Shown here piece after piece: positions 10,120-13,400 of a DNA stretch of 64,000 nt. The stretch lies in the NCBI RefSeq assembly GCF_054482525.1, contig NZ_CM137006.1; one strand, 5' to 3'. Position 1 is the stretch's first letter, and each line of letters begins with the position of its first letter. A program made the translations under genes and the position numbers. A model generated the notes under the pieces. It saw nothing but the letters and a program-made list of their open reading frames with translations. It had not been told where the DNA came from and searched no databases.

Positions 10120-10494
10120 TTACTCTAATGGTTTTATTAATTGTAAATTTTTAAATGTCATGCTTAATAAGCCATCAGAAAAATAAAGAAAAAATTTATA
10201 TATCCTTTTGTTTTTTAATTTCTTTATATACCCATTACTTATATTACCTGACTTGTGATTATCGATTAACTCAGCAGAATCCATAGCGAACACTAAATCA
10301 TCTACATCAGAAAATTCAACTATCATTTTTTCCCTAATGTTCTCATTTTTATAAATGTCAATAAATAACGTCATGTTAAAATGAGATTCTTTGAATGTCG
10401 TTTTTACTTCTAACAAAACCCCATCATGCCAGTCAATTGAACTCACAATGTCAAAATCGCTCATTATATAATCTCCATTATCCGTTTTAATCAT
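10120..10494 (-). CDS. Putative Rhs immunity protein (124 aa)
   Basis: ATG at 10494-10492 overlaps the rhs TGA stop (ATGA coupling); small, AT-rich, non-hydrophobic protein directly 3' of the Rhs toxin tip. The track start at 10527 is an in-frame upstream extension. Confidence 0.55.
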
Positions 10495-13400
10495 GGAGTA
10501 ACAACGTTTGCAGGTATTGACCACCAAAGAGGTGGTGCAAGTGAAGGTATAAATCGAATCACTCTATATATAACATACCCTGCGCCAATTGTAGCACCAG
10601 TTGCAAGAGCCGCATCAGTAGTTGATAGCCCGGAGGTTTTGCATGACAGATCTTTACTTGGTTCTGGCTCGAAACCATATTTTTTTGCACATTTCTTAAT
10701 GCTATTTGGTGCTGATGAGTAATCCTCACCATGGGACATACCTCCAAATTCCCCCATTACACCACTCCCATTTTTACACTCCCAATGCAAATGTCTTCCG
10801 TCACCAACAGCATCGCCATCTATTCGGATTCGACAACCTTTACCACAGTCCTTCCATTTTCCTGAAGTATGAGCTAATCCCAATGGATCAATCCATTGCA
10901 CAGGATTGTTCATAACATAACTGTACGGGTTTATTCCCCCCGCCAGCCCTATCGGGTCCTGGATGATATACCGCCCCTGCAACGGATCGTAGTACCGGTG
11001 ACGGTTATAATACAGCCCCGACTCCTCATCGTGTTGCTGCCCTGGCAGACGGTACGGCTGGTGCAGGTGATGCGGGTTTTCCTCATTCAGCAGGTTGCCC
11101 CATTCATCATACTCCCCGCTCCACGCCGTATTGCCGTCTTCGCTGATGAGCGCCAGCGGCAGGCCCCGGTGGTCGCAGTGGTAAAGATGAACTTTTCGCG
11201 CCGGTGTGTATTCCGGCTCCACCTGTTTTTCCAGTTGCTCCACCGTCAGCCCGCACTGCGCAAGCCACGCCCGGCTTTCACTGCTCACGCGGTCTGCCCG
11301 GATTTCCCCCTCCAGCCTGTCCAGCAGCCGCACCAGTTCAGCCGGGAACACCACGCTGTGTCCGTCCTCGCTCCCTTCCTGCTGGAGCTTCTCCGCCAGG
11401 CTCCGCCGCTGCGTTTTCTCCCGCTCGCCGTTGTCTGTTTCGATGCGGATGAGCGGTGTGAAGCTTCCCGGCTCGTATACCGTCTGGATACGTGTGCTGT
11501 CGGTCTGCACCGTCGTCAGGTGGTCGCCGTCCCAGCCGTACCACGTCACCTCCGGTTTACGCGACAGCGACATCCACCCCGTCAGGTCACGCTCCCGCCG
11601 CCATACCCGTTTCGCCATTCGCCGTCCCAGCGGGTCGTAGAGGTAGCGGCTCTCGACCAGTGGCTCTCCATGCTGTATCCGCGTGTAGAACACCAGGCGG
11701 TGCTGGCTGTCGTAGTGGTGGGTCCGCTCGTCGTCCGTCCGTATCACACCCGCCGGGATGCGGTCCGTCTTCTCCGTCAGCCTGCCGTATTCATCGTGGC
11801 GGTAGACATAGTGCGCATCCTCCGCGATGCGGTTATCCGGCCACACTGTGAGTGTACTGTCCGGGTGCAGCTCCGGGTCCGGCAGCCGGTTGCCCGCCGG
11901 GTCCGTGGCATACGGGATGCGGATGTCCAGGTCCGGTGCGAGGGTGCGCACGCTCTCCAGCCTGCCCGTGGCGCTGTAGCCGTATTCCCGCGTCTGTCGC
12001 GGGCCGCTGATGCGCACCAGGTCGCCGTTGTCATTCCACCCGTAGTCACGGTCATACACCAGGCTGTTCAGGTGCTGACTCTGTAACTGACCTGCGGGGG
12101 TGTATGTGCTGGTCAGTTCATATGCGGAATTACTGCCTGCCATGCTGCCGAAGCTGCGCACCGTCTCACGGTGCAGCCTGTCCCGCGTATACTCGACCAG
12201 CGGCGTCCCGCCCAGCTTCATTCCCGCCAGGTAACCGCTGCCATACGTCAGCCACTCCACCGGCGGCAGGCTGTCCGGCGTGACGCGGTTTGCCAGCCCC
12301 TGTTCGTTGTATGCCTGTTTCGTCTCATGCTGCCACAGCAGTTCCCCCGTCTCCGGGTTCTTCAACGTCTGGCGCTCACTGGTCAGACGGCCTTTATCGT
12401 CATAGCCGTAGTGGACCGCCACACGGTGGCCTTCGCTCAGGTGGCTGATTTCTCTCAGCCAGCCGTGGCCATCATACTGCCACTGCTCTGCCGGTTCGCC
12501 GTTCACCGTGCGGTGAGTGAGGCGGTCCGATTCATCGTAGTACCAGAGGATGACAAGCCCCTCATCTTCACTCTGCGTGAGTTTTCCGGTCAGGTCATAA
12601 TGATAACGTTGCGTCCGCCCGTCAAAGCCGCCCTGCTGTACCAGCCGGTCCAGTGCATCGTAGCTGAAGGCGCTGTCACTGCCGTTCTCGTTGGTCAGCG
12701 TGGCGACACGCCCTGCCGCGTCATACTCCATACTGCGCGTCAGCCCGCCCTGCGTGGTGCTGACCGCCTTTCCCCACGCATCGTACTGTGTCTCGCTCCG
12801 GTTGCCGTCCGGGGTGATAACGGCAGTCAGGTCGCCTGCGGCGTTGTATTCATACCGCGTTTCACGGCCCTGTGCGTCTTTCACCGAGGTTAACCGGCCA
12901 CGGTTGTCATAGCGGCGGTAAAGGCTGATGCCATCCTCACGGTGGACCGCCGTCATCTGACCAAAGCGGTCGTATTCATAGCGGGTCTGGTAGCCCGAGC
13001 AGTCGGTGAACGCCAGTAACTGACCGTAGCGGCTCCACGTCATCTGCCGGGTGCTGCCCGTCGCATCTGTTGTCGTGGCCGGTAATTCACTGTGCGGATT
13101 ATCATAAGCATACCGGATGACGTCCCCACTGCGCGATGTCTCCGATACCAGCCTGTCCCGCTCATCATACGCCCGGCGGCTCTCCAGCCCGTCCGGGTAC
13201 ACCACCGCCGTCACCAGGTTCCCGTCGTTATAGTAAAATTTCGTCTCCCGCCCGTCCGGCGTGGTGATGTCCGTGATGTCGCCTGACACCACATTCAGAC
13301 CGTACTCTGTCCGCCGTCCCGCCGCGTCCGTCTGCGCCGTAAGCCGCCCCACCGGGTCATACCCGCTGCGCGTGACGCTGCCGTCCGCCAGTTCTTTTTT

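Follow-up and report, generated by a model that had tools for sequence, protein, structure and literature searches.

Which part of an Rhs toxin tip is the toxin, and what does the remainder of the tip do? The question is raised by a 64,000-nucleotide (nt) stretch of DNA (contig NZ_CM137006.1 of assembly GCF_054482525.1; this whole stretch is referred to as the window), which contains an Escherichia coli rhs locus encoding an Rhs protein and, directly downstream of it, a small open reading frame (ORF). An initial annotation, made from the sequence alone, described the end of the Rhs protein as a C-terminal polymorphic-toxin tip of an unrecognized family, set off by a break in base composition and accompanied by its cognate gene downstream, and offered two interpretations of it: a nuclease-like or metal-binding domain, or a membrane-targeting effector. 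Our analysis supports the general assignment. The system is an Rhs toxin-immunity cassette of an ordinary kind, and the tip comprises, exactly as quoted, the 126 amino acids (aa) past the core-terminating motif of a 1384-aa ORF. The tip is built of two modules, a Cys/His domain and a Tox-WTIP tail, separated by a linker (Table 1). The two interpretations offered at first are probably not alternatives, as the tip appears to hold one module of each kind. The explanation that we favour, and to which we give about an even chance, is that a soluble, probably enzymatic toxin domain acting in the cytoplasm is coupled to an accessory membrane tail and is neutralised by the downstream protein.

The Cys/His-rich segment that had been pointed out is present in the tip, and the two thirds of the tip that contain it are indeed unrecognized. 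This region (…RHLHWEC…SHG) is a putative toxin domain of a previously unclassified kind. When the tip and 67 family members were scanned against Pfam, NCBIfam and PHROGs, no family was assigned to the domain, sequence searches of the PDB with the single sequence and with two profiles returned nothing with E <0.5, and the predicted fold had no match among solved structures. One distant family member showed a DUF4160 match, which was sub-threshold only (E ~0.08). In the AlphaFold2 (AF2) model, based on a 67-sequence alignment, residues 10-75 of the modelled segment have a predicted local distance difference test score (pLDDT) >90, while the linker and the tail are of low confidence. Readings of the domain as a LAS-type or M23 metallopeptidase, as an HNH/His-Me finger nuclease or as a T1/barnase-type RNase were dropped, as neither profiles nor folds supported them.

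The domain family is rare. A profile search of 1.84 billion representative proteins identified 88 clusters, and in nearly all of these the domain either closes an Rhs/YD protein C-terminally or belongs to an orphan tip. The residues conserved throughout the family are R1274, D1276, H1285, H1287, E1289, E1299 and the pair S1304-H1305; among the 67 family members, H1285 is found in all 67, H1287 and R1274 in 65 each, and S1304-H1305 in 61-62. Four cysteines (C1267, C1271, C1290 and C1319) are all present in 53 members and all missing in 11, and because they are present together or absent together they look structural. In the predicted hairpin, whose register was inferred from the AF2 model and assumed to be symmetrical, R1272, R1274, D1276, H1285, H1287 and E1289 lie on one face, and I1273, I1275, L1286, W1288 and the C1271-C1290 pair on the opposite one. 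If the register is indeed symmetrical, the domain would contain a small sheet with a conserved polar face. Cysteine-free versions of the domain (…WRFRIDPPH…HVHVE…DG..SH…) occur in the distant relatives P0112, P0116, P0120 and P0132; the first three carry Sec signal peptides, and P0132 combines two PG_binding_1 domains with a transmembrane segment at its C-terminus. The sub-threshold DUF4160 match came from one of these four.

The description "unrecognized family" holds for the Cys/His domain but not for the tail. The last 41 aa (tip residues 86-126) are a confident member of the family PF15654 Tox-WTIP, with an E value of 1.1e-13 and a score of 51.5 bits (Pfam gathering cut-off, 25 bits) over profile positions 36-79 of 79. 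Tox-WTIP was defined in 2012 by the motifs RxxR and Wx[ST]IP and was predicted to be a two-helix pore-forming toxin (Zhang et al., PMC3482391). A search of the literature for Tox-WTIP, PF15654 and related names retrieved this prediction paper only; Tox-WTIP being a computational prediction, the tip still has no match to an already characterized toxin domain. The C-terminal hydrophobic stretch reported by the initial annotation is present, but its hydrophobicity is only moderate: on the Kyte-Doolittle scale the best window of 19 residues reaches 1.32, short of the 1.6 that is usual for a transmembrane helix. AF2 predicts one low-confidence helix here (alignment positions 99-113), which is followed by a five-proline segment. 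An alignment of nine diverse tails, spanning distant lineages, has twelve invariant positions, the final Pro among them.

In the tail encoded in the window, C1335 is the only cysteine. In many tails, both WTIP and non-WTIP (P0053, P0075, L061, L068, L085), a CxxxC motif, often CxxxCQ, directly precedes the apolar stretch. Frameshifted or truncated E. coli versions of the tip that have no WTIP tail were also found (P0005 and P0007). P0005 represents 52 sequences, which indicates that the tail has been lost in some lineages.

It is a rule of polymorphic-toxin systems that the immunity gene varies along with the toxic domain. At all 11 readable independent loci encoding the Cys/His domain, a match to the hidden Markov model of the candidate immunity protein lies directly downstream (E 1e-10 to 1e-53), whichever tail the domain carries. 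These loci come from Escherichia, Citrobacter, Paraburkholderia, Xanthomonas, Pseudoxanthomonas, Lysobacter, a Rhodanobacteraceae genome, Ignatzschineria and three metagenomic contigs, and pairwise BLAST comparisons confirmed that the immunity proteins are homologous, with 36% identity (E 3e-22) and 24% identity (E 7e-7). No signal peptide, lipobox or transmembrane helix was found in any of the 11 cognate downstream proteins. The relatives of the domain have at least six unrelated C-terminal endings, each with a Pro-rich linker, usually followed by one apolar stretch. The endings are WTIP, a Gly-rich "AEPCG" type, "WWAPLL", the Xanthomonas "GFLSGAGS" type, other apolar sequences, and several Pro-rich ones without an apolar stretch. 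Five relatives (P0015, P0056, P0069, P0095 and P0129) have a Pro/Arg-rich peptide instead of the apolar tail, e.g. …PRPYIPIFPLPGRMPKIF. Such Pro/Arg-rich tails resemble proline-rich antimicrobial peptides, which enter cells via inner-membrane transporters.

The exchange of partners is equally evident when the tail is followed. A word-indexed homology search with the tail alone retrieved E. coli fragments only; a scan of metagenomes with the tail alignment gave 178 loci, and the 49 diverse loci with readable context were analysed. In these, the tail stands behind at least 17 BLAST-unrelated modules of ~50-110 aa each, none of which is known to Pfam. Some of the modules resemble PD-(D/E)xK or WHH nucleases by eye, a likeness that was unconfirmed by Pfam and is not claimed here. 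Of 127 pairs of loci that have their module in common, 98 (77%) also agree in the downstream protein family; of 1049 pairs whose modules differ, 38 (3.6%) do. Among the downstream proteins are TPR/Sel1 repeat proteins and DUF6714 proteins, besides many that belong to unclassified families, and a transmembrane helix is predicted in almost none of them. A WTIP protein lacking the Cys/His domain has DUF6714 proteins downstream instead of the immunity protein described here. A small Sel1/TPR-repeat protein consistently stands behind the commonest other WTIP-tailed Rhs module (GGSSGKxTxNPYKHC…KPKPADWP; loci L045, L054, L055, L060, L061, L066, L068-L070, L077, L087 and L091); as a candidate immunity protein it is of an unusual type. 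Since the downstream gene tracks the module and not the tail, the modules preceding WTIP would be the toxins and WTIP an accessory. The genomic contexts thus suggest that WTIP is a reusable accessory tail, and that its "toxin" label is a mislabelling.

These observations bear on the original reading of Pfam and Zhang et al., according to which the WTIP tail is itself the toxin, forming a pore or acting as an ionophore in the inner membrane; the Cys/His domain would then serve entry, assembly or receptor binding, and the downstream protein would hold that module. Such a reading agrees with the match to a family predicted to form pores and with the extreme conservation of the tail across contexts. 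Pore-forming Rhs tips, e.g. Tse5, are known, and the arrangement of a variable N-terminal module and a conserved C-terminal membrane module formally resembles the ionophore toxins of contact-dependent inhibition (CDI) systems. However, there is no immunity family specific to WTIP among the analysed loci, where the downstream genes track the preceding module and, almost without exception, encode proteins predicted to be soluble, and the same domain-immunity pair also occurs with non-WTIP and even non-hydrophobic tails. In the tail, one short, marginal helix is predicted at low confidence, followed by a five-proline end, rather than two clear transmembrane helices. A soluble toxin is favoured because known membrane-pore toxins have membrane immunity proteins, and the downstream protein of the window is not one. 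We regard a WTIP pore as unlikely.

The free swapping of tails would also agree with a function on the producer side only, in which the tail is a packing, retention or quality-control element within the Rhs shell, or a leftover of recombination, and has no role in the target cell. Truncated and frameshifted tail variants, such as P0005 and P0007, do circulate in E. coli. Nevertheless, WTIP also ends proteins without an Rhs shell, some of them small and stand-alone, others with peptidoglycan-binding or SH3 domains, which argues for a role that is independent of the delivery vehicle. The twelve invariant positions of the tail, retained across distant lineages, are also unlike a remnant. This explanation seems to us very improbable, the least probable of those considered.

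The downstream protein also bears on the nature of the toxin. The 124-aa ORF indicated by the initial annotation exists and overlaps the rhs stop codon in an ATGA sequence, but a 114-aa product is likelier: ATG 10464 is preceded by GGAG 8 nt upstream, is the start chosen by the Prokaryotic Genome Annotation Pipeline (PGAP) and is kept in the homologues. Neither a signal peptide nor a transmembrane or other hydrophobic helix is predicted in this protein. Its predicted fold is soluble, mostly beta, and resembles that of PIM7, which inhibits the Mg-dependent DNase PT7 through Asp17, the residue at the apex of its alpha1-betaA loop (Nachmias et al., bioRxiv 10.1101/2021.10.19.465003; PDB 8owu). 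In the candidate immunity protein, D24 (within WHDG) is invariant in the family and sits in a loop that is predicted to join helix 13-18 to strand 26-35; a DNxxSGNI motif is also present. By its place in the predicted secondary structure, Asp24 would correspond to the acidic D17 in the alpha1-betaA loop of PIM7. An invariant Asp24 in the first loop of a PIM7-like fold points to an active-site plug that would act in the cytoplasm. Immunity folds get reused against unrelated toxins, so the PIM7-like fold does not show the toxin to be a DNase. The downstream ORFs of four other WTIP loci (L063, L065, L082 and L086) also start with a (W/F/L)HD motif, like WHDG here. In an hhalign comparison, the immunity profile matched the proteins behind two other WTIP modules with a probability of only 15% in one case and 51% in the other; the shared start hints at a wider immunity superfamily, which profile comparison did not establish.

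The predicted location of the immunity protein also bears on the idea of a membrane-anchored periplasmic enzyme. In that case the tail would anchor the tip in the inner membrane, and the disulfide-bonded domain would attack the cell wall, lipid II or the outer leaflet. The co-variation of the four cysteines and the CxxxC motif of many tails would suit such an enzyme, as would the Sec signal peptides, peptidoglycan-binding domains and transmembrane segment of the cysteine-free relatives; the arginines past the helix would fit an N-out/C-in orientation. However, the 11 downstream proteins, with their lack of any signal peptide, lipobox or transmembrane helix, could not reach a periplasmic toxin. 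Moreover, no fold or sequence similarity to any cell-wall hydrolase was detected, and the immunity fold matches that of an inhibitor of a cytoplasmic DNase. We therefore consider a periplasmic enzyme quite improbable, more so than a pore.

According to the favoured two-module explanation, the first module would be a soluble toxin domain of ~65-75 aa (residues ~1262-1325, or to 1336 with the start of the EPEP linker). One face of its sheet is predicted to bear R1274, D1276, H1285, H1287 and E1289, with E1299 and S1304-H1305 nearby. The cytoplasmic PIM7-like protein would neutralise this module, probably by pushing its Asp24 loop into the His-rich site. The second module, the WTIP tail (the last ~41 aa), would be a reusable C-terminal membrane-association module and not the toxic principle. 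The Rhs protein would be loaded on VgrG and fired by the type VI secretion system, and the tip would be severed after DPLGL. Self-cleavage at the end of the core is established for Rhs/TccC proteins, and by analogy with other Rhs and Tc proteins the tip is expected to be released from the Rhs core by self-cleavage at this site. In the target cell, the tail may bring the domain to or through the inner membrane, as an anchor there or as an aid to crossing. The domain would then hit a target in the cytoplasm or at the cytoplasmic face of the membrane, most plausibly as a metal-dependent nucleic-acid hydrolase.

Several points weigh against this explanation. Sequence and fold searches detected no similarity of the toxin domain to PT7 or to any nuclease, and the nuclease idea draws on the immunity fold and the types of conserved residues, and on nothing else. 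The four conserved cysteines would fit a disulfide-stabilised periplasmic protein, and the distant relatives with Sec signal peptides or peptidoglycan-binding domains likewise point outside the cytoplasm. That the WTIP peptide is so strongly conserved, down to its last Pro, implies a specific function, which could still be a toxic one. The modules before WTIP are all unknown to Pfam, so none of them is independently proven to be a toxin, and the "downstream ORF" of the WTIP loci was chosen by position alone. Finally, the vgrG gene of the locus is split and, in E. coli PCN033, not expressed in culture; the locus may therefore be silent. This vgrG corresponds to vgrG2/1588 of PMC6363058, which showed no expression in laboratory culture, yet was functional when supplied on a plasmid.

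The features of the locus are summarized in Table 1. One flank of the rhs locus contains narZYWV, yddE, nhoA, yddH and an ISAs1 transposase gene, and the other the split vgrG, which ties the Rhs protein to type VI secretion. A Pfam scan of the Rhs ORF identified DUF6531, RHS repeats (PF05593, 13 stretches), the RHS core (PF03527) and a weak PAAR match. The tip and the downstream ORF are carried by 404 of 5426 complete E. coli genomes (~7%) and are chromosomal in every case, which shows that the tip-immunity unit is a real inherited cassette. The PCN033 locus is 100% identical over an 821-nt tip-immunity query; the same Rhs ORF is annotated there as "RHS element core protein", and the vgrG gene is described by PGAP as "type VI secretion system tip protein VgrG, frameshifted".

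The core has a GC content of 0.637, against 0.435 for the tip and 0.267 for the downstream ORF, and at third codon positions it is 0.765 in the core versus 0.254 in the tip. The composition switch noticed at the junction is thus a real fall, but it does not occur exactly there, since the GC content is already 0.51 in the last 150 nt of the core. The range first given for the tip, 10491-10872, was off by one, as 10872 is the last base of Ala1258; the coding span of the tip extends from 10871 to 10494, and the stop codon occupies 10493-10491.

Table 1. Features of the Rhs toxin-immunity locus (positions within the 64,000-nt window).
Feature	Position	Strand	Description
Full Rhs ORF	10491..14645	-	1384 aa: PAAR-like N-terminus, DUF6531, RHS repeats, RHS core, tip
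Core-terminating motif (residues 1248-1258)	10872..10904	-	PxxxxDPxGL-type boundary
Unclassified putative toxin domain (residues ~1262-1325)	10671..10862	-	Four antiparallel strands and a helix (AF2 pLDDT >90)
Pro/Ser-rich linker (residues 1326-1344)	10614..10670	-	AF2 pLDDT <50; variable, Pro-rich in relatives
Tox-WTIP tail (residues 1344-1384)	10494..10616	-	Short Gly/Ala/Thr-rich apolar helix, RVIR, Pro-rich end
RxxR signature (R1361-V-I-R1364)	10554..10565	-	Motif from PMC3482391; invariant in 9 diverse tails
Wx[ST]IP signature (W1374-W-S-I-P1378)	10512..10526	-	Motif from PMC3482391; tail alignment
Candidate immunity gene	10120..10494	-	124 aa from ATGA-overlap start; more likely 114 aa from ATG 10464
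Upstream vgrG	14712..16856	-	Two ORFs: 15045-16856 (603 aa) and 14712-15038 (108 aa)

The stretch just downstream of the immunity gene (window positions 8638-9980, minus strand) holds the gene of an ISAs1-family transposase ("H-repeat" element; 378 aa). In front of this gene stands a 42-aa ORF (9852-9980), whose similarity to the transposase N-terminus suggests that it may have been left by a second copy. The segment between yddH and the ISAs1 element (7990-8640) is AT-rich (GC 0.29-0.39) and contains short ORFs, one of which ends like a fragment of a GNAT acetyltransferase (…FYTKQGF…). This segment is probably decayed island DNA.

This cassette is a useful test case for how cytoplasm-acting Rhs/type VI toxins pass the inner membrane of the target cell. 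Tentatively, and with less confidence than we place in the two-module explanation as such, WTIP and the other swappable tails ("AEPCG", "WWAPLL" and the Pro-rich, antimicrobial-like peptides) might be autonomous inner-membrane entry modules that drag small toxin domains from the periplasm into the target cytoplasm. If this is true, such tails do for Rhs/type VI toxins what cytoplasm-entry domains do for CDI toxins, although from a position behind the toxin, and "Tox-WTIP" has been misfiled as a toxin for over a decade. The accessory status suggested for a Pfam "toxin" family would change the annotation of hundreds of polymorphic-toxin tips. The cassette also adds a new putative toxin domain and, with the predicted fold of its immunity protein, brings PIM7-like immunity into the Rhs systems of Gram-negative bacteria. 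It is well suited for testing, being common in E. coli and short, with cleanly separable toxin domain, tail and immunity gene. Small constructs and competing models with opposite predictions make bench work worthwhile.

Several known systems share individual features with the cassette. The prePAAR effectors, such as Tse6 and RhsA, have N-terminal transmembrane helices that lie outside the Rhs shell and need Eag chaperones; their proposed role is to assist the passage of the toxin across the inner membrane of the target. As proposed for the tip, they pair hydrophobic helices with a cytoplasm-acting type VI toxin, but the apolar element of the tip lies on the C-terminal side of the toxin, where the shell would enclose it.

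The immunity proteins of CDI ionophores are membrane proteins. According to Halvorsen et al. (2024, PMC11630599), the membrane toxin is a five-helix bundle and immunity pairs with the ionophore domain. The CDI ionophores likewise have two-domain tips, with one part swapped among many partners and the other directed to the membrane. The tip studied here differs in having one short helix and a Pro-rich peptide, both C-terminal, and an immunity protein that follows the soluble part.

Tse5-CT of Pseudomonas aeruginosa is also an Rhs C-terminal tip with apolar segments that reach the inner membrane and with VgrG-linked type VI delivery, as proposed for the tip described here. Its immunity protein Tsi5 belongs to the integral membrane proteins and has two transmembrane regions (PMC9637101), whereas the downstream protein of the window is predicted to be soluble and beta-rich. 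Moreover, the tip contains a folded soluble domain, and none has been reported for Tse5-CT. No PDB chain was matched in the sequence searches and hence no similarity to Tse5-CT was detected, on the assumption that the deposited Tse5 sequence includes the C-terminal tip.

The PT7-PIM7 pair (PDB 8owu) shares with the cassette the predicted fold of the immunity protein. The two immunity proteins nevertheless have no sequence similarity (9% identity), and the toxin domain of the tip matches PT7 neither in fold nor in sequence. PT7 is fused to LXG, a domain of type VII secretion, and no hydrophobic tail has been reported for it.

The closest counterpart of the tail remains Tox-WTIP itself, which the last 41 aa match above the cut-off, with both motifs and with the same position at the extreme C-terminus of an RHS polymorphic toxin. 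Tox-WTIP was described as a small, self-sufficient two-helix pore toxin, whereas in the tip it is appended to a conserved domain distinct from it. A single, weakly hydrophobic helix is predicted in it, and across the 49 WTIP loci the immunity-like gene follows the module that precedes the tail.

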